Shown here piece after piece: positions 6,280 to 63,052 of a DNA stretch of 64,000 nt. Both the position numbers and the translations under genes were made by a program. Every line of letters starts with the position of its first letter. Positions within the stretch are counted from its first letter, which is position 1. Location: contig CAZPCB010000002.1 of NCBI GenBank assembly GCA_964585065.1, forward strand, positions 166,967 through 230,966, read 5' to 3'. A model generated the notes under the pieces. The model was not told the origin of the DNA. It was given only the letters and a program-made list of their open reading frames with translations, and ran no database searches. This DNA is from an uncultured Candidatus Saccharibacteria bacterium. GTDB lineage: Bacteria > Patescibacteriota > Minisyncoccia > SW-4-49-11.

Positions 6280-7548
6280 ATGCCACAAAACCCTAAAAAA
6301 ATTCTAATTCTTTCTTGGGAAATATTGCCTTTGATGGAAGGTGGATTGGGGGTATTGGTGCGAAGCTTAGTGGATGAATTACGCCACCAAGGAGCAGAGG
6401 TCACTATTTTAACACCTCATAATACTGATGATATTGAGGATGTTATTTCACTTGAATTGGGAGTGAAGAAATATAGTAAATCAGATACGTCTATTCCTGG
6501 ACTGAAGGATTTTGTATTAAAAGAATTTGTTCCAAAAGGGAAAAAGAAATATGTAAAATGGCCACAATTATATAGTGAGTCAGTAGTAAAAAGAGCTACT
6601 CTGTACCCTAATCATACTCCTATTTCAACCAGAGCTTATGCCTATGCAGTGTATGATTGGCTACAAGAAAATGGCCAAGATTTTGATGTAATATATGGTA
6701 TGGATTGGATGGCTATACCAGCACATTTGCTTTTAGTTCATCATAATATTACTATCCCATTTTATTATCATATTAATTCTACTGAAGTTGATCGCTCAGG
6801 TGGACATATACATAATAATGATCATACAGCAAGAACTTTATATGAACTTGAGAAAAAGGGATTTTATTTGGCAGAAAAAATTGCAGTAGTATCAGATATA
6901 TCTAAACAAATATTAATTGAGGATTATAATATTCCTGAGGAGAGAATTTATCCTATATATAATGATATTAGTTTTGAGCCTGAGAAAATTGGATTTGAGC
7001 ATTTGGATCGCGGTAAAAATGTGTTATTTATGGGGCGTGTTGTGGCACAGAAAGGATTATTCTTTTTGATTGAAACAGCAGTACGGGTTCTTCAAATTGA
7101 TTCTCAAGTTACATTTATTATTGCGGGGGATGGTTCTATAGAAGGGAATCTTTTACCAGAAATTGTAGAGCATGTAGCAAAACGTAAATTAGAGCGAAAT
7201 ATTGTATTTACGGGTTGGGTTAATAGTGAATCCAAAAAACAATTATATAAAACTAGCCAATTATTTGTTATGCCATCTCCTAATGAGCCATTTGGACTTA
7301 CCGCCTTGGAGGCAATTCGCTCAGGAGTACCTACTATTGCTTCAGAGACAAGTGGATTTATTAGTGTAGTGCCCTCAACCCCAACTTTTGCCTATTATGA
7401 TATTGAAGCCTTTGCTAATACCATACTTCATTTTATTCAAAATAAAGATGCTCGAATTGATTTATTAAAAAGGCAACAAGAAGATTTATCTCATCATAGT
7501 TGGCCACAAGAAGTGAAAAAATTATTGAGTTTAATAGAGGCGGTATGA
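6280..7548 (+). CDS. GT4/GT5 glycosyltransferase, alpha-glucan (glycogen/starch) synthase-like
   Basis: N-terminus KILILSWEILPLMEGGLGVLV resembles the GlgA KTGGL region. C-terminal EPFGLTALEA retaining-GT motif. Confidence 0.6.
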   Translation: MPQNPKKILILSWEILPLMEGGLGVLVRSLVDELRHQGAEVTILTPHNTDDIEDVISLELGVKKYSKSDTSIPGLKDFVLKEFVPKGKKKYVKWPQLYSESVVKRATLYPNHTPISTRAYAYAVYDWLQENGQDFDVIYGMDWMAIPAHLLLVHHNITIPFYYHINSTEVDRSGGHIHNNDHTARTLYELEKKGFYLAEKIAVVSDISKQILIEDYNIPEERIYPIYNDISFEPEKIGFEHLDRGKNVLFMGRVVAQKGLFFLIETAVRVLQIDSQVTFIIAGDGSIEGNLLPEIVEHVAKRKLERNIVFTGWVNSESKKQLYKTSQLFVMPSPNEPFGLTALEAIRSGVPTIASETSGFISVVPSTPTFAYYDIEAFANTILHFIQNKDARIDLLKRQQEDLSHHSWPQEVKKLLSLIEAV

Positions 7549-8636
7549 CAAAAGATATAAAGATACCAGTTTCGCTCAAAGAGGAATATCCCGTAGTGAT
7601 TTCTTTGTCTTTAATTTTTTCTTATACTTCTAAATCTTTAGTGGATATTTTGAAAAACCCAAAACTTCCTTTTGTGGATAAAAAACAAAGTGATACTATT
7701 TGGGAAAAAGAATTCAATACCATATATATTCCCTTATTTGAATTTCTGTATAAGCAAAATATTAAAGCTGCAGTAATTATTACAGGACATTTTCTTGATA
7801 TTGCTGCTCGTAAATATCCAGCATTCTTAGATATTTTACAAAAAATGATTCAAAAAGATTTACTATATATTATTCCAGATGCCTATTGGGGAAGTAGTCA
7901 TCTTAGTATGTATTATTTTGATTGGTGGAAAGATGAAATTGCAGGAACTATAGAGCGAATAAAAGAGTATTTAAACATTATACCAACTTCCGTATATGTG
8001 CCTTTACTGTATCGACAATTACCATTAGAAAAATTATTAACAAGTTTTGGAATAGTAGATTTTGTGACCATAGTAGATGAACGTAAAGGAGGGATTTTGA
8101 CTATGCCATTAAAATCATTTCGGCGTTTTCGAGGGGGGAGAGTAACTTGGATAAAAGAGGTGGAGAAAACAGATATTAATATTCATTGGTATCCTTATAC
8201 CCATTATTTTGATTTGATGAATGTAAAAAATCATCAAACAATAGAATTGATGACAAAATCAATAGGACTTGAAATAGCACTTGCCTCAACCAAAGCTCAA
8301 ATTGTGAAAAGTAAACCAAAAAAGAAGTCCTCTCTTCGTATACAAGAAGAGCGTAATTGGTCACGATATAGTAATCTTCAAAAAGGAGTATTTAGGCTAT
8401 GGGAATATGCTACCTATATGCTCGGAAAAGAACATGCAGAAATTGATACCATTGATGATGATCCCTTAATGCGAAATTTGTTTTATAGTATGAATAGAGA
8501 TTTCTTTTATTATCTTGGATATGATAATTATACCAAAAAACAACAAATTCCTTTTACTTCACCCTATGAATCATTTATTCATATTCAGAATACCAATATA
8601 CAATTAGAAATTTTATTTAATCAGAGAGAAACATAG
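7545..8636 (+). CDS. Hypothetical protein between glucan synthase-like GT and phosphorylase (possible glucan-processing enzyme)
   Basis: ATG at 7545 overlaps the upstream stop (ATGA). No confident family assignment; the call rests on context only. Confidence 0.3.
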   Translation: MTKDIKIPVSLKEEYPVVISLSLIFSYTSKSLVDILKNPKLPFVDKKQSDTIWEKEFNTIYIPLFEFLYKQNIKAAVIITGHFLDIAARKYPAFLDILQKMIQKDLLYIIPDAYWGSSHLSMYYFDWWKDEIAGTIERIKEYLNIIPTSVYVPLLYRQLPLEKLLTSFGIVDFVTIVDERKGGILTMPLKSFRRFRGGRVTWIKEVEKTDINIHWYPYTHYFDLMNVKNHQTIELMTKSIGLEIALASTKAQIVKSKPKKKSSLRIQEERNWSRYSNLQKGVFRLWEYATYMLGKEHAEIDTIDDDPLMRNLFYSMNRDFFYYLGYDNYTKKQQIPFTSPYESFIHIQNTNIQLEILFNQRET

Positions 8637-14124: not shown

Positions 14125-16548
14125 ATGATAATTGTACTCTATGTACTGCTAGTGCTATGGGTTATTGCTATAACATTTATTATAGCAACGGTTATTATAC
14201 ATCCATTTTGGGAAAAACGTCGTATTAATCGGGGACTTGCAATGACACAATATCAAATTATTGTACCTCGCAATATCCCTAATCCAGAAGCTAATATCAA
14301 AGATTTAATTAGTGTGATGGAACAGGTATATGCGGGGTTCTCTTATCTCAAATTAGAGAAATTAGTCAATCGTCTTAGATATGGGAGTCCTTATATTTCT
14401 CTTGAAATTGTAAGCCCTACCGAGCGAGATGAAATTAATTTTTATATTGGAGTTCCAAAAGGGTATGAATCTATTTTTGAAAAACAAATTCATGGAGTAT
14501 ATCCAGAAGCTGAGCTGAAGCATATTACCGATTATAATGTATTACTCCCTGAAGGAGAAATTCGGGCCGGATACTTACAGCTTAAAAAACCCTATATTCT
14601 CCCTATTAGAACCTATAAAGAATTAGAAACTAATCCTTTGAATGTGATTACCTCGGCTCTGTCTAAAATTCAGGAAGATGAAAGTGCAGTGGTACAGATT
14701 TTAATACAAAGAGTATCGGATGATTGGAGTAGTAGTGGTAAGAAGGTAGTGAAAAAAATGCAAAAAGGAGAAAGCTTCAAAAATGCATATAATGAAGTTT
14801 TTGGGGGGATTGATAAGCAATTTTTGAAAACTTTAGGTTCTGCTACAAAGTCTAAATCAACGGAAGTCTCTGAGCCAAAAATGTTAAGTCCTCAGGAGTC
14901 TATTATGATGGAGAAAATTAGTCAAAAAACAGGTAAAATTGCCTATGCGACTAATATTAGATTATTAACTATATCTCGAGATAGCCAAAGAGCAGATGTA
15001 TTATTTGATCAATTAGAGGGTGCTTTTTCTCAATTTGCCAATGGAGATCTGAATCAATTTAAAGTAATCAAATATCCTATAAAGAATATTAAACAATTTA
15101 TTTATACCTTTATATTCCGATTATTCTCAGTAAAAGAATCAATGTTATTAAATAGTGAGGAATTGACGAGTATATATCATATTCCTGCTGTGGGAGTGGA
15201 GACTCCAAAAGTAACTTGGATTACTTCTAAAACCTCACATCCTCCAGTTGATTTGCCAAAGGAAGGATTATTATTAGGGAAGAATATATATCGTGGTGAA
15301 GAAATTGAGGTAAGAATTGCAGAAGAGGATAGGAGACGTCATATGTATCTTATTGGACAAACAGGAACAGGTAAAAGTTCTTTGATGAAAAAAATGATAC
15401 AAGAAGATTTGCAAGCAGGACATGGTCTTGCTCTATTAGATCCTAATGGAGATTTTGCCGTGGAAGTATTGGGTATGATTCCAGAGCATCGTATGCAAGA
15501 TGTGATTTATTTTAATCCTGCTGATACTAATTATCCTATGGGACTTAATATTCTGGAAGCCCGCACACATGAGGAAAAAGATTTCTTGATACAAGAAATG
15601 ATTTCTATTTTTTATAAATTGGTATCTGATCCAAGTATGATAGGGCCAATATTTGAGCATAATATGCGAATGGCAATGTCAGCTTTAATGTCAGATGTCA
15701 ATAATCCAAGAACTCTGGTAGAAATACCTCTTATGTTTACTGATGAGGCATTTAGGAGACAAGTATTATTAACAGTTGACGATCCTGTCATACGGCATTT
15801 TTGGGAAAAAGAATTCCCTGCTACACAAAAAGGATCTCAAGCAGGAGATACACTTGGATATCTATTGAGTAAATTAGGGCGATTCATAGAAAATGAAATG
15901 GTACGTAATATTATTGGGCAATCTCGTTCAGCCTTTGATTTTCAAGATATTATGAATTCAGGTAAAATTTTGATTGGTAATCTTTCTAAAGGAGGGTTGG
16001 GAGAACAGAATAGCAATTTATTAGGTATGTTACTGGTATCCAAATTACAAATGGCAGCCTTTAAGCGAAATGAAATTCCAGAAGAACAGAGAAGAGATTT
16101 TTATTTGTATTTAGATGAGTTTCAAAACTTTACCACAGATAGTATATCTACCATTCTCTCTGAGGCTCGCAAATATCGATTATGTCTCATATTGGCCCAT
16201 CAATATATAGGACAATTATCTGAGGGGATAAAGAATGCAGTATTTGGGAATGTGGGTACTGTGGTGAGTTTCCGTATTGGCTCCGAGGATGCTGAAATTA
16301 TTGCTCAGCGTATGCAACCATATTATAGTGCTGAGGATTTAGTGTCAATTGACAATCTAAAGTCAGTAATAACCTTGATGATACAGGGTAAGACCAGTAA
16401 AGCTTTTAATATGGATATTATATTCGCTGATAAGACGAATGCATCTTTACAACAACGGGTAATATTAGAGTCTCGCAATAAATATGCCAAGCCGGCAGCT
16501 GAAATACGAGCGGATATATCGAGTCGTACGCAAAGTATGTTCGAATAG
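14125..16548 (+). CDS. Type IV secretion/conjugation coupling protein-like ATPase (VirD4/TrwB/TraG family)
   Basis: N-terminal TM helix. Walker A HMYLIGQTGTGKSS followed by LLDPNGDF, matching the TrwB GATGTGKS...IVDPNGD arrangement. Walker B-like YLYLDEFQNF. Confidence 0.6.
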   Translation: MIIVLYVLLVLWVIAITFIIATVIIHPFWEKRRINRGLAMTQYQIIVPRNIPNPEANIKDLISVMEQVYAGFSYLKLEKLVNRLRYGSPYISLEIVSPTERDEINFYIGVPKGYESIFEKQIHGVYPEAELKHITDYNVLLPEGEIRAGYLQLKKPYILPIRTYKELETNPLNVITSALSKIQEDESAVVQILIQRVSDDWSSSGKKVVKKMQKGESFKNAYNEVFGGIDKQFLKTLGSATKSKSTEVSEPKMLSPQESIMMEKISQKTGKIAYATNIRLLTISRDSQRADVLFDQLEGAFSQFANGDLNQFKVIKYPIKNIKQFIYTFIFRLFSVKESMLLNSEELTSIYHIPAVGVETPKVTWITSKTSHPPVDLPKEGLLLGKNIYRGEEIEVRIAEEDRRRHMYLIGQTGTGKSSLMKKMIQEDLQAGHGLALLDPNGDFAVEVLGMIPEHRMQDVIYFNPADTNYPMGLNILEARTHEEKDFLIQEMISIFYKLVSDPSMIGPIFEHNMRMAMSALMSDVNNPRTLVEIPLMFTDEAFRRQVLLTVDDPVIRHFWEKEFPATQKGSQAGDTLGYLLSKLGRFIENEMVRNIIGQSRSAFDFQDIMNSGKILIGNLSKGGLGEQNSNLLGMLLVSKLQMAAFKRNEIPEEQRRDFYLYLDEFQNFTTDSISTILSEARKYRLCLILAHQYIGQLSEGIKNAVFGNVGTVVSFRIGSEDAEIIAQRMQPYYSAEDLVSIDNLKSVITLMIQGKTSKAFNMDIIFADKTNASLQQRVILESRNKYAKPAAEIRADISSRTQSMFE

Positions 16549-20598: not shown

Positions 20599-22482
20599 TT
20601 AATCTAGGGTACCAATATAATTATATCGAGCTATATACATATCTCTATTACTAGTAGGTGTGAGTGAGATTTGATTAGTACCGCCAATACCAAATGTTGC
20701 AAAACTATTAAAGTCTCCCGCTATTACAAAACCTCCCAGTACCTTCCCAATTGCTATTCCTCTATCTGAACCCATTCCTCCAGCTCTTCGAGCCCAAGCA
20801 AGAGTCCCATCAGTATTATATTTAGCTATAAATACATCATCACTACCACTACTGGTCAGAATAGTCTGATTTGTTTCTCCCGGTCCAAAAGTAGCTGTTC
20901 CATTAAATTGCCCTGTTATAATACTACTTCCATCTATATTCCTCATTATATCAAAACTGCTATCATCATTTAGGCCCCCAGCTTTTTTAGCCCAGATTAA
21001 ACTACCATTATCACTATATTTAGCTATAAATATATCTGAACCACCACTGCTACTTAAGATGGTTTGATTTGTCTCTCCTGGTCCAAAAGTAGCTGTTCCT
21101 TGAAGGTTTCCTATTATAAGACTATCAGTATTAGGTAATGTTCTAACTGCTATGGGGCCATCCCAACCAATTCCACCAACCTTTCGAGCCCAAGCTAAGG
21201 TTCCATTAGTATTATATTTGGCTATAAATCCATCTATATCAGTAGTATTCGTCAATATAGTTTGATTTGCTTCTCCTTGTCCAAGAGTAATATTTCCATA
21301 AAAAGCTCCAATTATGATAGAGCTACCATCATTTAACATACTAACTCCTGTACTATCATCTATATCTGTACCACCAGCTTTTCGAGCCCAAGCAAGAGTC
21401 CCATCAGTATTATATTTAGCTATAAAAGCATCTCTATTCCCAGCATTAGCTACTAGAATAGTCTGATTTGTTTCTCCCGGTCCAAAAGTAGCTGTTCCCT
21501 GAAAGTATCCTACACTAATACTAGTCCCATCAGATAAAGTACTAATACCATAGCCACGTCCATAATCTCCTACTACACTACCAGTAACTCCTTTAGCCCA
21601 AGCAAGAGTCCCATTGGCATTATATTTAGCTATAAATGTGTTATTTGAGATAATACTATTTAATGTTGTTTGATTTGTTTCCCCTTGTCCAAACACTGCA
21701 GTCCCACTAATATAACCCGTTGTAATACTGCTCCCATCAGGAAGACAGCTAATACCATAGCTTATATCATAGTCATTTCCTCCATCCCGCCTAACCCAAG
21801 CCAAACTACCATCGATATTATATTTGGCTACAAATATATCATATCCACTCCCAACAGATGTACGTATGGTCTGATTTGTTTCTCCTGGGGCGAAGGTTGC
21901 ATTTCCTTGAAATAATCCTGTCACTATACTGCTCCCATCAGAATTAGTACACATTCCCCCTGTATTAATAATTTCTCCAGGACTTCCCCCAGCCCGCTTT
22001 GCAAAGTTAACTGGTGTTGCTGGAAGGGTAAAAGTTGTACTTTGAGATTCAGAAGTGAAAGTGGTATTATCAACACTATTAATTCCTCCCACTCCAATTT
22101 TACCATTTGTACTTTTTACTATATAAAAACCACTATTATTGATATCGGTGGAATATGAAGGGATGCTCGCAATATAATTGGGTACTAATACAGATAAATT
22201 TACCTTACCCGTACAAGAGGGTGCTCCTGTTTTACAAATTTCTAGAGAACTACCAGCAGGAACATTCTGGACATCAGTAGGATAAGCTCCAGTTTTGAGT
22301 GCATATTGTTCTATAGCTTGATAGAGAGTAAGGGCATCAGCTTTACGCTTATTGTCATTGACTTCAGTAATAATTCTACTTGGATTAAGAGTATATAATA
22401 CTGTAGCAAAGAGAACAGCAAGTAGAGCAATAACAAGAAGTATTTCGAGTAGGGTAAAACCTTTTTTTGTATAGGGTTTCAT
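20599..22482 (-). CDS. Type IV pilin-like protein with C-terminal SBBP-type beta-propeller repeats (putative pilus adhesin)
   Basis: Prepilin N-terminus MKPYTKKGFTLLEILLVIALLAV (class III signal, GFTLLE). About 8 tandem repeats of the form G..D.S.GIS.L.DGSSI..G.F.GTATFGPGETNQTIL....DAFIAKYN.DGTLAWARK.GG. Confidence 0.7.
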   Translation of the reverse strand: MKPYTKKGFTLLEILLVIALLAVLFATVLYTLNPSRIITEVNDNKRKADALTLYQAIEQYALKTGAYPTDVQNVPAGSSLEICKTGAPSCTGKVNLSVLVPNYIASIPSYSTDINNSGFYIVKSTNGKIGVGGINSVDNTTFTSESQSTTFTLPATPVNFAKRAGGSPGEIINTGGMCTNSDGSSIVTGLFQGNATFAPGETNQTIRTSVGSGYDIFVAKYNIDGSLAWVRRDGGNDYDISYGISCLPDGSSITTGYISGTAVFGQGETNQTTLNSIISNNTFIAKYNANGTLAWAKGVTGSVVGDYGRGYGISTLSDGTSISVGYFQGTATFGPGETNQTILVANAGNRDAFIAKYNTDGTLAWARKAGGTDIDDSTGVSMLNDGSSIIIGAFYGNITLGQGEANQTILTNTTDIDGFIAKYNTNGTLAWARKVGGIGWDGPIAVRTLPNTDSLIIGNLQGTATFGPGETNQTILSSSGGSDIFIAKYSDNGSLIWAKKAGGLNDDSSFDIMRNIDGSSIITGQFNGTATFGPGETNQTILTSSGSDDVFIAKYNTDGTLAWARRAGGMGSDRGIAIGKVLGGFVIAGDFNSFATFGIGGTNQISLTPTSNRDMYIARYNYIGTLD

Positions 22483-25208: not shown

Positions 25209-25865
25209 ATGAGCGATATAACAGAAAATAATTTTATTGGAAAAGGAATACTTATTGTTACGGTATTAGTAGTGATAGGTGCTATTGTTTGGGGACTTAA
25301 TACTCAAAGTTCAGGATCTCGTAATGTAAATGTAGAAGTTACAGATGAGGATACTTATCTTGGAAATAAAGATGCCAAAGTTACTCTAGTAGAATATTCT
25401 GATTTTCAATGTCCTGCATGTAAGGCTTATGAAGATATTGTGAAACAACTTCGGGATTCTTATAGTCCAGAGGATTTAAAATTTGTATATAGACATTTCC
25501 CACTTCGTAGTATTCACCCTAATGCTGATATTGCCGCTCAAGCTGCCGAAGCTGCAGGTGAGGAGGGGAAATTCTGGGAAATGAAATCTCTCTTATTCGA
25601 AAAACAATCTGAATGGGAAAAGGAAAAAGATCCTAAGGGATTATTCGGAGCTTATGCAAAATCATTAGGAATAGATGTAGGTAAATTTGATGAGGATTTG
25701 AAAGCAGATGACGATTCAAAAGAGCGAGTAGAAAAAGATTATCAATCAGGAGTTGCTCTTGATATTGCCTCTACACCCACCTTTATACTAAATGGAGTAA
25801 TTATCAAAAACCCTCAAAGTGTTGATGAATTCAAATCTCTTATTGATGCTGAACTCAAGAAATAA
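25209..25865 (+). CDS. Membrane-anchored DsbA-family thiol:disulfide oxidoreductase
   Basis: N-terminal TM anchor. Thioredoxin fold with CxxC active site (DFQCPACKAY). Confidence 0.65.
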   Translation: MSDITENNFIGKGILIVTVLVVIGAIVWGLNTQSSGSRNVNVEVTDEDTYLGNKDAKVTLVEYSDFQCPACKAYEDIVKQLRDSYSPEDLKFVYRHFPLRSIHPNADIAAQAAEAAGEEGKFWEMKSLLFEKQSEWEKEKDPKGLFGAYAKSLGIDVGKFDEDLKADDDSKERVEKDYQSGVALDIASTPTFILNGVIIKNPQSVDEFKSLIDAELKK

Positions 25866-28301: not shown

Positions 28302-29045
28302 ATGGGAAATAAATCAATTTTATTAGTAGTAGCTTCCATTTTACTTTCAGGTATGATGATTGCAACAGCAATAATATTCAATGGATATCAGAGTAGAAGT
28401 AATAATAATACGGCTACGAATGATTTACCACAAGTTGATAATAATGACCCAGTAGAGGCGCGCGATATTAATGTTGATATTTCTGATGATACTCCATATC
28501 TTGGAAAAAAATCAGAGGCCAAAATTGCAATTATAGAGTTTAGCGATTATGAATGTCCTTTTTGTAAAAAATTCCATGAAGGAGCAAGACCTGATATAAT
28601 TGACAAATATGTAAATACTGGAAAAGCAATATTAGCTTGGAAAGATTATCCATTAGAATTCCATGATCCTCTTGCAACCAAGCAAGCGATAGCAGCTCAA
28701 TGTGCATATGAACAAAAAGGAAATGAGGGATATTTTGCATATGCTGATTTGATATTCAATAAAACTGAAAGTGGTGGAGATGGAATGAAAGAAGAAGAAT
28801 TAAATATATTAGCTAAAGGGATAGAGGGGCTTGATACTGCGAAATTTGATACTTGTCTGAAAGAAGAAAAAACTCTCAATAAAGTAAAAGCAGGTACAAA
28901 ATTTGGTAATGATAATGGAATTACGGGAACTCCTGGATTTATTATTGGAAAATTAGAAAATGGTAAATTAGTTGGGGGTATTCGAATTGCAGGGGCTTTA
29001 CCACTCGCAACATTCCAAGGATATCTTGATGACCTTTTGAAATAA
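28302..29045 (+). CDS. Membrane-anchored DsbA-family thiol:disulfide oxidoreductase (second copy)
   Basis: TM anchor and CxxC motif FSDYECPFCKKFH. Confidence 0.65.
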   Translation: MGNKSILLVVASILLSGMMIATAIIFNGYQSRSNNNTATNDLPQVDNNDPVEARDINVDISDDTPYLGKKSEAKIAIIEFSDYECPFCKKFHEGARPDIIDKYVNTGKAILAWKDYPLEFHDPLATKQAIAAQCAYEQKGNEGYFAYADLIFNKTESGGDGMKEEELNILAKGIEGLDTAKFDTCLKEEKTLNKVKAGTKFGNDNGITGTPGFIIGKLENGKLVGGIRIAGALPLATFQGYLDDLLK

Positions 29046-34955: not shown

Positions 34956-36206
34956 ATGCAAAAAAAAGGGTTTACATTATTAGAGGTATTACTGGTTATC
35001 GCTTTAATAGGGATATTATTGACTATTATATTGGTAGTCCTCAATCCAAGGGAGCGTTTTGCTGTAGCTCGTAATGATGTTAGGAAATCTGATATACAAA
35101 AATTAGAAGGAGCTCTTACCCAATATCGCTTACAAGAGGGATCCTATCCTGCGGGACTTACTTCAACCTTACAAGAAATTTGTGACCCAGATATTAGTAA
35201 TCCTTCCGTAAATTGTGGTAGCTATATTAACTTATCATCTCTTGTCCCAACTTATATTCAATCCATACCACAAGATCCCCAAGACACTGATTCAACAGGA
35301 GGTTCTGGATATCAAGTTGCGGTAGATGTGACACGAAATGTAGTAGCACTAAAAGCAATACAGGCAGAATCCTCAGCTACAATATCTATTAATGACCCCT
35401 TATCATCGGCTCTACCAAGTACAGCGGTAAATACACCACTTGCAGCAAGTAACCCTTCCATAACTAGTCAAACTCCACCTTTAGTACCTAATACAGGAGA
35501 TGTATCGCTACTGCTCCATGCGGATGGTAGTTTTGCGGACAGTAGTCCTAATAATTTTGTTCCAATGAGTACTGGAGGGACTCCCGGAGTGAGTGGCGAG
35601 GGGGTGCAAATTAGTACTACTCAGAGCAAGTTTGGTGGTTCAAGCCTATTCTTCCCAGATGTGGACATAAATAATGCCCCCTATCCTGCGTTGTCATATT
35701 GGACACCTGAGTCTGGTGGATATAATTATTTCCCTGAGTTTAGCCTAGGAAATACTTATACAATTGAAGCATGGGTCTACGCAATTACACCCAGGGGAGG
35801 AATAGTTGAGAGGCTTGCTGGAGCTTTTTCACAGGAATATGGGTACTCTATGACGTTTGAAGGAGCACGAATAAAATGTTACTTTTACGGAACCTTCGAC
35901 GGTTCAGGATTTCAACAGTATATCTTAGCTCCTTCTGCATTTCCCACCTCAACCTGGGTTCATGTAGCGATGGTTCGTAGTGGAACAAACGGAGCCTTAT
36001 ACATTAACGGTGAGTCAGTTGGTACTATAAATAATCTTAACACTCCGCAAGGAAGTGTTAAGCCGGTTCGTATAGGTTCAAAAAGTGTTGGAAGCGGAGG
36101 AAATTATAACACTATCTTCTTCAACGGTTACATAGATGATCTACGTATCACTAAAGGAGTTGCCATATACACCTCTAACTTCACCCCACCTACTTCAGCT
36201 TTTTGA
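34956..36206 (+). CDS. Type IV pilin-like protein with C-terminal LamG/concanavalin A-like lectin domain
   Basis: Prepilin N-terminus MQKKGFTLLEVLLVIALIG. C-terminal 160 aa has the LamG_3 pattern (TWVHVAMVRSG..ALYINGESVG...FNGYIDDLRITKG). Confidence 0.65.
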   Translation: MQKKGFTLLEVLLVIALIGILLTIILVVLNPRERFAVARNDVRKSDIQKLEGALTQYRLQEGSYPAGLTSTLQEICDPDISNPSVNCGSYINLSSLVPTYIQSIPQDPQDTDSTGGSGYQVAVDVTRNVVALKAIQAESSATISINDPLSSALPSTAVNTPLAASNPSITSQTPPLVPNTGDVSLLLHADGSFADSSPNNFVPMSTGGTPGVSGEGVQISTTQSKFGGSSLFFPDVDINNAPYPALSYWTPESGGYNYFPEFSLGNTYTIEAWVYAITPRGGIVERLAGAFSQEYGYSMTFEGARIKCYFYGTFDGSGFQQYILAPSAFPTSTWVHVAMVRSGTNGALYINGESVGTINNLNTPQGSVKPVRIGSKSVGSGGNYNTIFFNGYIDDLRITKGVAIYTSNFTPPTSAF

Positions 36207-36269: not shown

Positions 36270-36455
36270 TTGATCAGAGGTGATGGGTCTCGAGGTAATA
36301 CCTTTAATATCGGGGCAGGATTTACGAGTACTGCTCAGAGTATTATACAACAAAATGATGGGAACTTCGTTATAGGTGGCTATTTTGCTACTTATCAAGG
36401 AGTAGCAGAAGCTTATATAGCTCGTCTTAATACAGATGGAAGTAGTGCTCAGTAA
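36270..36455 (+). pseudogene. Remnant of a beta-propeller repeat (IARLNTDGS-type) with no proper start
   Basis: The ORF opens with TTG and has no ATG. The translation GYFATYQGVAEAYIARLNTDGS resembles one blade of the repeat in the pilin at 20599-22482 (FIAKYNTDGT). Confidence 0.35.
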
Positions 36456-38539: not shown

Positions 38540-39805
38540 ATGCAAAATAAAAAAGAAAAAGGCTTTACATTATTGGAGATATTACTAGTAATAGCAGTAA
38601 TAGGAATATTAGCAGCTATAGTATTAATTGCTATTAATCCTAATAAACAAATAGCGCAAGCTCGTAATACTGCTAGGAAAGTTGATATTAATACATTAGA
38701 AAAAGCCTTAAGACAATATTCTATAGATAATGCAGGTCAGCTCCCAAATGTAATACTGAATCAATATAAAGTAATTTGTAGACAAGGTATTACTGATCCT
38801 TCTTGTATTAATCTTGATGTTTTGGTACCCACATATATTGCGGCTATTCCTCGGGATACACAATCAAATACTATTAATACAGGATATTCGGTAGCAGTAA
38901 ATCCCAATAATACGAATGTTTCTATTGTTGCAAATTTAGCTGAACAGTTTGTAGAAATTTCAATTAATAAATTTAATGAAGGAAGTGGTGCTTCGGCTTT
39001 ATTAGCAGCTAATTCTTGTCAATCTATTTTGTCTTCTGGATACTCAACTGGAAATGGAGTATATTGGATTAATTTACCTACTTCAGGTGCTACACAGATA
39101 TATTGTCTTATGGATACATTATTTGATGGTGGTGGCTGGATGTTGGCTATGAAAGCTACTCGCGGCACTACATTTAATTACGACTCTGCTCATTGGACTA
39201 CAACAACAACATTAAATCCCACCGATCTAACGAGAAACGATGCGGATGCTAAGTATCATACTATGAACTATTACCCCACCAGGGATTTAATGGCCGTGTG
39301 GCCAGATATCCCAACAGCTGGAGGAAGTATTCCTAATACTGGAAGCTGGACTTGGTTGGAAAAGAATTTTTACAATGGTGGTAATCGAACTACTCCTATA
39401 AATTTCTTTAGCACAATGGGAACATATAATAATGGCGGAACACCTAGTACGGGTGATTATGGCGGCTATTTTATTAAAGACGCTAAGACATTTAGTGGCT
39501 GGGCAAATGGTGTGTTTTCGAGCCAGGTAGATATTAGATTTTATGGATTCAACTTTATCAATCATCCTAATTACGGATTTAATGGTAGAGTCCGTTGGGG
39601 ATTTGGATGGAATGAGAATGGTGAGGGACTATATACTAGTCCTGCTACACTAGCCACCGGCTGGGCACCTGGGTCGGATGACGTAAGTGGTGGTATAGGT
39701 ATGGCAAGTCAATTTGGTAGTTATTCAGCTGGAGATATAATTAACTGCTGTCAAGATAATACAGGTATAAACCGATCCGCTAGAGTTGAATTATATATTA
39801 GATAA
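38540..39805 (+). CDS. Type IV pilin-like protein with C-terminal fibrinogen-related domain (FReD)
   Basis: Prepilin N-terminus MQNKKEKGFTLLEILLVIAVIG. The segment NSCQSILSSGYSTGNGVYWINLPTSGATQIYCLMDTLFDGGGWMLAMKATRGTTFNY matches the FReD core pattern C..G.SGvY.I.P...VyCDM.tdGGGWT..Q.R.dG..F. Confidence 0.7.
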   Translation: MQNKKEKGFTLLEILLVIAVIGILAAIVLIAINPNKQIAQARNTARKVDINTLEKALRQYSIDNAGQLPNVILNQYKVICRQGITDPSCINLDVLVPTYIAAIPRDTQSNTINTGYSVAVNPNNTNVSIVANLAEQFVEISINKFNEGSGASALLAANSCQSILSSGYSTGNGVYWINLPTSGATQIYCLMDTLFDGGGWMLAMKATRGTTFNYDSAHWTTTTTLNPTDLTRNDADAKYHTMNYYPTRDLMAVWPDIPTAGGSIPNTGSWTWLEKNFYNGGNRTTPINFFSTMGTYNNGGTPSTGDYGGYFIKDAKTFSGWANGVFSSQVDIRFYGFNFINHPNYGFNGRVRWGFGWNENGEGLYTSPATLATGWAPGSDDVSGGIGMASQFGSYSAGDIINCCQDNTGINRSARVELYIR

Positions 39806-39814
39806 CAAAATTAT

Positions 39815-41086
39815 ATGGCAAAATTTAAGATTAAAGGAAAGCAATTTGGTAAAAAGGGTTTAATTCCCGTATATGGAGCCAAGAATTCAGCAATAAAATT
39901 ATTACCAGCTACACTCTTGATTGATGGAGTAATAACTCTTCATAATATTCCCGATATTGATGATATTCGCGATATGATTGCGATATTGATTGCACTGGGG
40001 GCAAAGGTAGATAAAATCGCCCAACATTCTTATACTATTGATACCACTACTATTGATAATAATAAAATTCCTATTGAACTTGCAATTAAAATGCGAGCAT
40101 CATTTTTGTTTATTGCTCCATTATTAATTCGTTTTGGAGAAGTTGAATTTCCTCATCCTGGAGGAGATGCAATTGGTCGTAGGCCAATTGATATGACATT
40201 AGAAAGTCTTAGATTAATGGGAGCTGAAGTGATTGAGGATAATCAAAAATATATATTCCGATTACCCAATAAAAGTCTTAAAGGAATAGAATATATATTC
40301 AAATGGATTTCGCATACATCTACAGAGAATTTAATTATGGCGGCGGTAAAGGCAGAAGGGAAGACAATCATTTATAATGCTGCTCTTGAGCCAGAAATTA
40401 CTGCTCTTTGTGATATGTTAAGAGGAGCGGGAGCTCAGATTACTGGAGATGGTACCTCACAAATTGAAATTGAAGGAGTTCAAGAATTATCCTCAGTAGA
40501 ATATACTAATATACCAGATAGACTTGAGGCAGGTACATTTGCAATTTTAGCGGCTCTCACCCGAAGTAATATTATGGTTACTGATATTAATCCTAATCAT
40601 TTGAGAGTATTTTGGAAATTCCTTGATATGGCGGGTATACAATATGAATTAGGGGATGACTTTGTACATATTATTCCTCATCATAATAGCTATAAGGCTC
40701 TACAGCTTAAAACACATGAATATCCTGGTTTTGTAACTGATTTACAAGCCCCATTTACCCTTTTATTAACACAGGCTATTGGTACTTCGGTAGTGCAGGA
40801 GACTATATTTGATGGAAGATTATTTTATACGGATACTTTGAATCAAATGGGTGCTAATATCATTATGTGTGATCCCTATCGCGTAGTAGTAAATGGACCT
40901 ACTCAATTATATGGACGCAAAATAGAAAGCCCTGATGTAAGAGCTGGCATGACATTTTTATTAGCAGCTTTAATTGCTGAGAGAGATAGTGAAATTCATA
41001 ATATTTATCATATTGATAGAGGATATGAGAAAATAGAAGAGCGCCTCACCAATATAGGCTTTGATATTATACGAGAAAATACATAG
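39815..41086 (+). CDS. murA: UDP-N-acetylglucosamine 1-carboxyvinyltransferase
   Basis: 423-aa EPSP-synthase-fold enzyme. N-terminus KIKG...LIPVYGAKNSAIKLLPATLL is typical of MurA. Confidence 0.9.
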   Translation: MAKFKIKGKQFGKKGLIPVYGAKNSAIKLLPATLLIDGVITLHNIPDIDDIRDMIAILIALGAKVDKIAQHSYTIDTTTIDNNKIPIELAIKMRASFLFIAPLLIRFGEVEFPHPGGDAIGRRPIDMTLESLRLMGAEVIEDNQKYIFRLPNKSLKGIEYIFKWISHTSTENLIMAAVKAEGKTIIYNAALEPEITALCDMLRGAGAQITGDGTSQIEIEGVQELSSVEYTNIPDRLEAGTFAILAALTRSNIMVTDINPNHLRVFWKFLDMAGIQYELGDDFVHIIPHHNSYKALQLKTHEYPGFVTDLQAPFTLLLTQAIGTSVVQETIFDGRLFYTDTLNQMGANIIMCDPYRVVVNGPTQLYGRKIESPDVRAGMTFLLAALIAERDSEIHNIYHIDRGYEKIEERLTNIGFDIIRENT

Positions 41087-61027: not shown

Positions 61028-63052
61028 ATGAAATTATTTGATAATTTAATAGTATATGGACCAGAAAAAGAGGGTAATGGATCTCCTAGTTTAGAATTAT
61101 CAGCTCAAGAATTAGAGGCATTAAAAAGAGAAACAGAGGAAATTAAAGAAGTAGAACAAGGAGAGACTGTGTTTGAGGAAATTACAACTCCTGAGTCAGA
61201 AGCTGAAACAGAAATAAGTCTCGATGCTTTACTGGGAGATTTGGTAGGTGAATTACAACAAGAAGTAGAAGAGGCTAATAAGTCTCCATTTGAGATTGAT
61301 GAGGAGACAGGATTATCTCTACAGGGTCAGACAGTACAAGAAATTCAAGATAGGCTTGCTCAATTAGAGAATAGACAAGCTACTGATATTGAAGAGTCCA
61401 TTCATTCATCTCGGGGAGAAGAGCAGGGACAATTAAAGTCTATATTAGAAATAGCAAAAACAAGTCAAGATGATACATTATTGCAGATCCAAAAAGCTTT
61501 TAACAGCTTTAAGTCTTCATATCCTGACTCTCCAGTAACAATAGAAGCATTTATTGCAAAAAAAGATACCTTACAGAATATAGTAGATACCGATGAGAAA
61601 AAAGTACAAGAAGCCGAAGCCTCTCTCGCTACATTTGAAGCTGAGACCAAAAGACTTATTGATGAGGCTTATGAGACTGAGCTACAAACAACAAAAGATA
61701 GATTAGAGCCTTTAAAGCCAGAATATGAAGGGAGTGAAGTAGAAAAACATGATAAACAAGTTTTATTAGAGCAAAAATTAGAATTTTTATTAAACAATCC
61801 AGAAGAATTATTTAGTGATGCTCATATTGCTGAGATATTAGCAGTATATGGATTACAGGAGGGGCAAGATAAAATTCAAAACTTACAGGAACAAAGTAAA
61901 GAAGCTCAGGAACAACAAAAAAGGGATGATATCAAAGAAGAAATACTCCAAAATATATATTGGTCTAAAGATGAAATACCTGAATTAACACAAGCTATTA
62001 ATGCTGATATTGAAGCTAAATTAAAGCAATTACAAGAACAGTATCCTGATTTAGAGCCTATTACAATAGCATTAAAGTTATCGGGAAAAGACCGTTTTGC
62101 TTATCTTCTTGACTCAGAAGATCCTGAATTAGAGCAATTAGTATTCTGGTCTTCCTCTAAAGGAGATAAAAATTGGGATAATATATTAGCTGAACATCCT
62201 CAATTGAGACAATATGTAGAGAGTCAAGTTAATCATACATTTGCTGATCGAGAACAAAAAAAAGAGGACTTTCATATACAAAGAGAGAAGCAATCTCAGG
62301 AGCGTATTACTGCCACTATAGAAAATGGAGTTAGTCGTTATAAAAAGCAGGAAGTTAATCGTATACAAGGAGAAATATCTCAAATTCAGAATGATGAAGT
62401 TTTTTATTCACAAGATAGAAAAGATAAAAGTATTGTACAAAGTAAAGAAGCAATTCAGCTCACAGATATTAATGAATTTAAAGCATCAATACAGTCTGGA
62501 GTTGATGGAATAACCATAAATGAGGGAGGATTTATTACCCAAAATGATATTGCAGAATCTAATAAAAAGATTGATGAGGAAATGGTTGTATTACTTACTA
62601 AAATACAGGGATATATAACCGGTATGGGATATAAGCAGGATAAAGTCAGCTCTCTAGATGATTTGAATACATTTGGTGAACAAATTACTAATGATTTGAC
62701 TATCGAGAGTAAAAAACTGTTTAAGGATAAAGCTAAAATTACTCAGTTAGCAGCGTTACAAAAACATATTGAAGAAGTAAAGGAACAACATCAAACTCTT
62801 AATAATCAAAAAATAGAGAATCAAAAAATATTCAGACAAAGGTTAGAACGAGTAAGAGAACTTAATACTATTGCAGGAAGATTACCCCAGTATATTAAAG
62901 AAACCCTTATGGCATCACCAATGAATAGTATGTCTGAAAAACTTGATGCTATAGTACAAGAATTACAACAATATGAAACTTCTGCTGAATTACAAGCTCA
63001 AAGAGATAAAATTGATCAGTTACAGCGACAGATAGAAGAATTAAGAGGGTAA
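61028..63052 (+). CDS. Large acidic coiled-coil hypothetical protein immediately downstream of ftsA
   Basis: 674 aa, E/K/Q-rich with heptad-like periodicity. No tubulin/FtsZ GGGTGTG motif. Confidence 0.5.
   Translation: MKLFDNLIVYGPEKEGNGSPSLELSAQELEALKRETEEIKEVEQGETVFEEITTPESEAETEISLDALLGDLVGELQQEVEEANKSPFEIDEETGLSLQGQTVQEIQDRLAQLENRQATDIEESIHSSRGEEQGQLKSILEIAKTSQDDTLLQIQKAFNSFKSSYPDSPVTIEAFIAKKDTLQNIVDTDEKKVQEAEASLATFEAETKRLIDEAYETELQTTKDRLEPLKPEYEGSEVEKHDKQVLLEQKLEFLLNNPEELFSDAHIAEILAVYGLQEGQDKIQNLQEQSKEAQEQQKRDDIKEEILQNIYWSKDEIPELTQAINADIEAKLKQLQEQYPDLEPITIALKLSGKDRFAYLLDSEDPELEQLVFWSSSKGDKNWDNILAEHPQLRQYVESQVNHTFADREQKKEDFHIQREKQSQERITATIENGVSRYKKQEVNRIQGEISQIQNDEVFYSQDRKDKSIVQSKEAIQLTDINEFKASIQSGVDGITINEGGFITQNDIAESNKKIDEEMVVLLTKIQGYITGMGYKQDKVSSLDDLNTFGEQITNDLTIESKKLFKDKAKITQLAALQKHIEEVKEQHQTLNNQKIENQKIFRQRLERVRELNTIAGRLPQYIKETLMASPMNSMSEKLDAIVQELQQYETSAELQAQRDKIDQLQRQIEELRG

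Follow-up and report, generated by a model that had tools for sequence, protein, structure and literature searches.

How bacteria of the Candidate Phyla Radiation (CPR) recognize and attach to their hosts is little understood, and lectin-like minor pilins are the lead candidates in one genetically tractable case. In Nanosynbacter lyticus TM7x, the pilin PilX1 carries a jelly-roll, L-type-lectin-like domain and PilX2 a beta-propeller; host binding falls by about half on deletion of pilX2 and is inhibited by rhamnose (PMC11623550). Modular pilins as a kind are already known, and Dataset S1 of PMC8179133 has the architecture "IPR012902 - IPR002181" for eight proteins. Segments resembling fibrinogen-related domains (FReDs) have been noted in phages and bacteria, and the intelectin domain has been stated to be absent from phages (PMC9682848). 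Intelectins are described as soluble chordate trimers (PMC12800186). Here we analyze a gene at 38540..39805 (+) of a 64,000-nucleotide stretch of contig CAZPCB010000002.1, hereafter the window. The gene, from an ultrasmall lake bacterium of the Candidatus Paceibacteria, encodes a modular type IV prepilin of 421 amino acids (plus stop) whose C-terminal module has a predicted intelectin-like fold and whose outer lobe, as judged from regional DNA comparison, was recently exchanged for a phage-type allele.

The pilin carrier and its C-terminal module

The open reading frame (ORF) begins with ATG and is intact, with no internal stops. Residues 1-145 form a pilin carrier that combines a class III signal with a long alpha-1 helix and a head made of a small beta sheet. 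The class III (prepilin) leader MQNKKEKG (38540..38563, +) is short and basic and ends in Gly; after it come Phe(+1), Glu(+5) and some 20 hydrophobic residues, with cleavage predicted after Gly8 and the mature protein beginning with FTLLEILLVIAVIGILAAIVLIAI. A reading of the DNA made earlier from its letters alone, below called the sequence-only reading, had quoted residues 7-22 (KGFTLLEILLVIAVIG) as a canonical prepilin leader, and the profile searches agree: the N_methyl model PF07963 matched with E=5.3e-8 (32.6 bits; cutoff, 21.2) and TIGR02532 with 29 bits (cutoff 16.3). In a phmmer search of the PDB, residues 4-69 match chains of geopilin, GspG and PilA, and the GspG model TIGR01710 reaches E=2.8e-11, under its equivalog cutoff. 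The alpha-1 helix, residues 9-60 (38564..38719, +), appears in the structure model as DSSP helices 11-32 and 34-60, the hydrophobic N-terminal half being the filament-core and membrane segment, and is modeled as packing on a small globular head, residues 61-145 (38720..38974, +), that contains Cys80, Cys89 and three beta strands at 116-141. In the model, a linker, residues 146-157 (NEGSGASALLAA; 38975..39010, +), connects the final strand of the pilin to the first module helix, and homology to nonpilin proteins begins here.

The module opens with a fibrinogen-like lobe 1, residues 158-215 (39011..39184, +; pLDDT, the predicted local distance difference test, 93-97), which has the N-terminal cysteine pair of FReDs, Cys160-Cys189, and, as the counterpart of their YCDM...GGGWT motif, YCLMDTLFDGGGWM. 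The fibrinogen-like stretch quoted in the sequence-only reading (NSCQSIL...GGGWMLAMKATRGTTFNY) is real, occupies residues 158-214 and goes beyond chance similarity. The NCBIfam model NF040941, "fibrinogen-like YCDxxxxGGGW domain", matches residues 159-202 (E=7.5e-11; 41.9 bits, cutoff 30). The PDB sequence of ficolin-3 aligns with residues 158-211 (E=0.0047); ficolin-3 and the tenascins are the only nonpilin PDB sequence matches of the prepilin (phmmer). The same reading had let the fibrinogen core run over residues 150-300: the match is confident at the sequence level over approximately 158-211, and the remainder is linked through structure only, with hhalign extending the fibrinogen-type sequence match to about residue 250 against intelectin. 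The Pfam model PF00147, which had been proposed as a check, does not match the prepilin even at E<=1. Relatives of the module exceed its threshold at 26-41 bits, only on profile positions ~2-58 of 221, and have a motif nearer to YCDM..GGGWT than that of the prepilin.

Beyond lobe 1, the module continues as lobe 2, residues 216-411 (39185..39772, +), the equivalent of the intelectin-specific region, with the invariant motifs WGFGWNENGEG, GSxDVSGGIGM and SAGDxINCCQD, and ends in the C-terminal strand INRSARVELYIR, residues 412-421 plus stop (39773..39805, +). The motif ARVE[IV]Y[IV]R closes almost every member of the module family, and intelectins have a similar end, AAVLLFYR. An AlphaFold2 model built from 70 sequences (pLDDT 90-97 over residues 150-290 and ~75-95 beyond) predicts the two-lobed fold of intelectins, a FReD-like lobe joined to an intelectin-specific lobe. 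Comparison of a 341-sequence family alignment with intelectin-1 and the Xenopus lectin XEEL using hhalign gave a probability of 92.7% and E=4.2e-7, the confident part being the FReD-like lobe; at low stringency, the alignment to intelectin was colinear from residue 158 through the last residue. When the family alignment was used as a profile to search PDB sequences, the sole match was to an intelectin-type lectin of lamprey, over its N-terminal 60 residues.

Intelectins characteristically bind glycans with exocyclic 1,2-diols in a Ca2+-dependent manner, and the putative ligand site of the module was compared with theirs in low-confidence alignments. The invariant N358-E359-N360 is aligned with intelectin N260-T261-E262 in two of the three, and N338 adjoins N243; N243, N260 and E262 are what we take to be the ligand-Ca2+ residues of human intelectin-1, with numbers checked against the chain numbering of 4WMQ and against PMC12800186. 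For intelectin E274 and the aromatic box W288/Y297, all three named as binding-site residues (PMC12800186), no counterpart could be placed in these alignments. Because the confident intelectin match is limited to the FReD-like lobe, the structural-Ca2+ motif of intelectins falls in a gap and the ligand residues are partly placed, we classify the 270-residue module as a distinct prokaryotic and phage branch of the FReD/intelectin superfamily, with an intelectin-like overall fold in the model, and not as part of the intelectin family proper. The interpretation in the sequence-only reading is partly supported: a pilin carrying a fibrinogen-superfamily module is retained, and the classic fibrinogen-related domain gives way to a fold predicted to be intelectin-like.

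The cysteines differ in their conservation. All of the 68 sequences compared at first have the vicinal Cys403-Cys404 (39746-39751), and replacements occur only among a few divergent relatives (e.g., L039). Cys189 is retained in nearly all of the family, but most copies of the phage type or from Bacteroidota have Ala in place of its FReD partner, Cys160. We considered Cys160 as a mark of exported copies, and Ala of phage copies, and rejected the idea, as Bacteroidota copies with signal peptides have Ala too.

Exchange of the outer lobe

For block comparison, we used a sister gene, P0002 (locus L139), an ortholog, P0003 (locus L137), and a phage-type gene, P0004, which encodes a 286-amino acid protein with no signal peptide. 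From 38464 to ~39183, covering the upstream flank, pilin, linker and lobe 1, the prepilin gene and P0002 are 92-100% identical in nucleotide sequence (90.5% for lobe 1). From ~39184 to 39773, corresponding to residues 216-411, the identity drops to 62-74% with indels and at 39774-39833 returns to 100%. The similarity to P0004 runs the opposite way, with 61% nucleotide identity in lobe 1 and 87.9% (89% at the amino acid level, with one gapped position) in lobe 2. The C-terminal strand is again 100% identical with P0002 and P0003 and 67% with P0004, making it the downstream recombination anchor. Fisher tests on identical versus different nucleotides gave p=4e-36 for the comparison with P0002 (residues 1-215 against 216-411) and p=4e-15 for that with P0004 (lobe 1 against lobe 2). 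Third-codon-position identity to P0004 at identical residues rises from 56% in lobe 1 to 77% in lobe 2. At the level of DNA comparison, these patterns demonstrate that the outer lobe, residues 216-411, was exchanged by recombination for a phage-type allele.

The donor-like sequence lies in a phage-like setting. Directly upstream of P0004 and of the related P0010 there is in each case a gene that ends in the same phage-family domain, phrog_17490/phrog_28536 (E down to 6e-40). The one preceding P0004 has weak tail-fiber matches too, and the P0010 locus has virion-structural matches and very large ORFs with no Pfam matches. P0002 and P0003 are 94.6% identical in the nucleotide sequence of lobe 2 and 70% in the pilin part, which suggests that lobe-2 cassettes also move between Paceibacteria pilin genes; we take this pattern as a second, independent sign of cassette movement. 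An assembly chimera is argued against by the recurrence of the window-type allele in a pilin context in independent assemblies: the cluster of this prepilin protein is present on four contigs, and locus L003 has the allele at 98% nucleotide identity. No pilS-like silent cassettes or repeats of the module were found in the window. A neighbor-joining tree of the modules alone was suggestive only, and regional DNA comparison was used instead.

Carriers of the module and genomic setting

A search of 5.8 billion proteins returned 1,367 matches. Their common part is the C-terminal 250-275 residues, 45-86% identical (mostly 57-72%) in the best 120 hits; the N-terminal parts of the matching proteins are highly varied, and the shared region has no Pfam model. 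In an exhaustive hidden Markov model search of 1.84 billion representatives, we found 316 clusters at E<=1e-30, 705 at E<=1e-10 and 2,182 at E<=1e-3. The module matches the phage family phrog_1325 (function unknown) with E=6.1e-30, residues 145-367 aligning to profile positions 90-292 of 334. The deposited phages with the module are T4-like cyanophages, 38-52% identical over 91-96% of its length, and their module genes adjoin tail-fiber and tail-fiber-assembly genes. The match to phage P-HM2 in BFVD has E=1e-23, and one cyanophage protein there is already called "Fibrinogen C-terminal domain-containing protein". At least 171 confirmed stretches in IMG/VR contain the module. Among the 35 viral carrier proteins inspected there were no pilins; signal peptides were absent, and many had tail-fiber-type N termini.

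Proteins of cellular genomes have the module at their very C terminus and fall into several groups: further CPR prepilins or pseudopilin-like proteins, Sec signal peptide-bearing proteins of Bacteroidota, Actinomycetota proteins of very large size and DPANN archaeal proteins with N termini resembling archaeal pilins by eye. As in other modular pilins, the C-terminal domain is therefore not confined to pilus biology: phage and surface proteins with no pilin part carry it too. The DPANN carriers come from metagenome-assembled genomes (MAGs) of Nanoarchaeota and an unclassified archaeon (L014 5956-7131, L015 5641-6753, P0148, P0182 and P0196), for which mis-binning is possible. Their N termini, e.g., MKRVMNKSGLSTIVVTLILVVLSLVAVGVVW, resemble archaeal class III signals on inspection, which is the basis of the likeness because archaeal pilin Pfam models gave no match to these proteins; Fibrinogen_C did match them. 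The module protein L025 in the isolate genome of Nonlabens xiamenensis strain 1Q3 (NZ_RMVE01000006.1) is probably prophage encoded because it shares its N terminus and its length of 529 amino acids with proteins of the IMG/VR viral contigs L109, L118 and L129.

The prepilin gene itself lies in a chromosomal region. The window has a G+C content of ~34% and contains housekeeping genes, with rpe, a Mur ligase gene, murA, relA/spoT and mreB directly around the prepilin gene and aminoacyl-tRNA synthetase genes, gyrB, ftsA and parAB farther out. Over 13 kb around the gene, the nucleotide identity is 98% with JBIIRM010000003.1, a Candidatus Paceibacteria MAG (isolate ME2003-09-08pf_3300042542_group2_bin38) whose counterpart protein differs by a single residue. 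The isolate name points to a multiyear lake sample series, and allele dynamics might be traceable in its reads. Gene order is conserved around the ortholog P0003, which is 63% identical (LamG-pilin, rpe, Mur ligase, pilin-module, murA, relA, mreB, GT4), and dN/dS against it is ~0.2 in both halves of the gene, with dS >1 and saturated. The pilin-module fusion is chromosomal, stable and syntenic in related genomes. A promoter and terminator scan of the flanks of the gene was no better than chance.

Two further modular prepilins are encoded in the window. The first, of 416 amino acids (34956..36206, +; N_methyl E=2.7e-6), has a LamG/concanavalin-A-like module (Laminin_G_3 E=3e-20) and a pilin part 46.6% identical to that of the intelectin-like prepilin, and occupies the same position in the syntenic locus of P0003. 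The other, of 627 amino acids (20599..22482, -), has the prepilin motif KKGFTLLEILLVIA (N_methyl E=2e-5), DUF5122 beta-propeller repeats (E=9e-7) and a pilin part 45% identical. Between the LamG pilin gene and rpe, a 61-amino acid ORF (36270-36455, +) contains one DUF5122 beta-propeller repeat (E=4.4e-8, above cutoff) and may be left over from another gene or cargo with a propeller. Two DsbA-like thioredoxin-fold proteins (Thioredoxin_4/DSBA; 25209-25865 and 28302-29045, both +) are consistent with extracytoplasmic disulfide formation for exported pilins in a CPR genome. Elsewhere in the window, an 807-amino acid protein (14125-16548, +) has the TrwB/VirD4-type coupling-protein domains TrwB_AAD_bind and TraG-D_C and may be part of the CPR type IV secretion or conjugation-like system discussed in PMC12102498. 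The ORFs 7500-8636 (+) and 61028-63052 (+), of 378 and 674 amino acids, have no Pfam match at E<=1e-4.

Proposed function and comparison with known systems

We consider it reasonably probable that the protein is a modular, probably minor, type IV pilin with an intelectin-like glycan-binding module for partner attachment, its specificity altered by lobe-2 exchange. A PilD-type peptidase would remove the leader after Gly8, and the pilin would enter the pilus, probably at or near the tip as a minor pilin because a 270-residue cargo would clash inside the shaft, as argued for Streptococcus sanguinis PilB (PMC8179133). The module would bind a cell-surface glycan through lobe 2, with Ca2+ possibly held, as in intelectins, by the invariant cluster of N338, N358-E359-N360 and acidic residues, and this binding would attach the episymbiont to its host or partner cell. 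Exchange of lobe 2 would then shift binding specificity in the way that tip swaps of phage tail fibers shift host range, and the swapped outer lobe may change what the pilus adheres to. A broader view is doubtful at present and put forward tentatively: episymbiotic CPR bacteria, and possibly DPANN archaea, might arm type IV filaments with an intelectin-like module of phage tail-fiber clusters and retarget it through lobe swaps with phage alleles, a form of host-range switching shared by viruses and cellular parasites. The family might in that case represent the prokaryotic and viral counterpart of the two-lobed intelectin fold, which is chordate-restricted in the literature.

Several observations weigh against the pilus-borne lectin. 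Residues 61-106 of the pilin head are poor in the structure model, and no pilus machinery, pilus assembly genes or prepilin peptidase were found within the window. HENxxxGxCTxGD, the consensus of the structural Ca2+ site of intelectins (PMC9682848), is absent from the module and corresponds to a gap in every hhalign alignment. The mapping of the ligand site comes from low-confidence alignment. Finally, the identity of the module across different carriers is very high (60-70%), which is unusual for a specificity determinant given the presumably different targets and could reflect a common ligand or a nonlectin role.

Some of these points fit other explanations. The lack of pilus machinery in the window would suit a pilin-like protein that makes no long pili, either a short-filament pseudopilin of the type II secretion system or Com kind or simply a protein held at the surface by its N-terminal helix. 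Among equivalog-type models, the best similarities are to GspG/GspH pseudopilins and ComG pilins, all under cutoffs, and the CPR relatives L004, L006 and L030 carry the module on noncanonical helices that lack Glu+5, L004 and L006 also lacking an N_methyl match. Filament assembly is, however, the usual context of the canonical Gly-1/Phe+1/Glu+5 signal, and the minor pilins of TM7x with large modules work with type IV pilus filaments (PMC11623550); we regard such a protein as unlikely. The conservation across carriers would also suit a nonlectin module kept for structural reasons, either an enzyme (perhaps a depolymerase that cleaves glycans) or a trimerization or folding knob of fibrous proteins. 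We give this a slimmer chance, as the strong structural neighbors of the module are all lectins, catalytic families are unmatched in Pfam, NCBIfam and PHROGs, and a monomeric pilin carrier needs no trimerization knob.

Two further explanations accept a binding function on a pilus. The module could be a classic FReD of the ficolin or tachylectin-5 type that binds acetyl groups in the P-domain pocket beside the Ca2+ site. With classic FReDs (ficolins, FIBCD1, tenascin and angiopoietins; PF00147), it shares the YC.M...GGGW motif and the A/B-region fold, but we did not find in it the P domain with its Ca2+ site and acetyl-binding pocket; we classify the module as not a classic FReD with that pocket and hold this explanation to be very improbable. 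Alternatively, a pilin with the receptor-binding lobe of a phage might mask or compete for the phage receptor and serve in phage defense or competition. The 88% nucleotide identity of lobe 2 to a gene in a phage-type fiber cluster would suit such a role, which is purely speculative and sits poorly with a conserved, syntenic gene in a housekeeping region with two other adhesin-type pilin paralogs nearby; its probability appears minimal.

The locus adds a third cargo type to the same pilin carrier family, the cargo being a widespread and unnamed module of phage fiber-cluster genes and microbial surface proteins. It also provides a sequence-level example of the exchange of a ligand-side lobe, with a phage-type gene and a chromosomal pilin gene as the partners. 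Should the module be a lectin, its members are candidate glycan-recognition reagents and offer a route to predicting the targets of CPR bacteria and phages. The literature searched yielded nothing specific on intelectin-like domains in phages or pilins or on sharing between CPR pilins and tail fibers. As far as these searches show, three aspects are new: a whole two-lobed, intelectin-like module, beyond a FReD-like segment, in prokaryotes and phages; the presence of one module on CPR pilins, apparently DPANN pilin-like proteins, and phage fiber clusters; and the exchange of an outer-lobe cassette between a phage-type gene and a chromosomal pilin gene.

Compared with intelectins or X-type lectins (human intelectin-1, 4WMQ/4WMY/6USC; Xenopus XEEL, 4WMO; lamprey serum lectin, 7E1E), the module is 16% identical, lacks three of the four intelectin disulfides, has the vicinal Cys403-Cys404 instead and is prokaryotic or phage-borne and grafted onto carriers; its relation to animal intelectins is raised as a question. 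From S. sanguinis PilB, with a von Willebrand factor A domain, and PilC, with a concanavalin-A-like lectin (PMC8179133, PMC9934059), the prepilin differs in the fold of the cargo and in sharing and recombining that cargo with phage genes, and here the system is known from sequence. Together with these S. sanguinis pilins, the closest experimental parallel is the CPR bacterium TM7x, whose pilins also have C-terminal lectin-like domains, and the window resembles it in having LamG and beta-propeller pilins alongside the intelectin-like one: the LamG prepilin is analogous to S. sanguinis PilC and TM7x PilX1 and the DUF5122 prepilin to PilX2. The window differs in representing Paceibacteria rather than Saccharibacteria and in its third module type, which is absent from PMC11623550. 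The fiber-cluster proteins of T4-like cyanophages (phrog_1325; P-HM2 E3SSV2, ACG-2014h S-MbCM7_084/086, P-TIM40 gp043 and the P-SSM4 protein already named after the fibrinogen C-terminal domain) have a homologous module; unlike the prepilin, they have tail-fiber-type N termini and no signal peptide or pilin part, and their function is unannotated. Phage tail-fiber mosaicism and the pilE/pilS variation of Neisseria are both forms of cassette exchange at adhesin tips. As in those systems, a variable distal segment has recombined between conserved anchors and the carrier has stayed constant; in contrast to pilE/pilS, the window has no silent cassettes, and the donor-like sequence lies in a phage-type fiber cluster on a different replicon.
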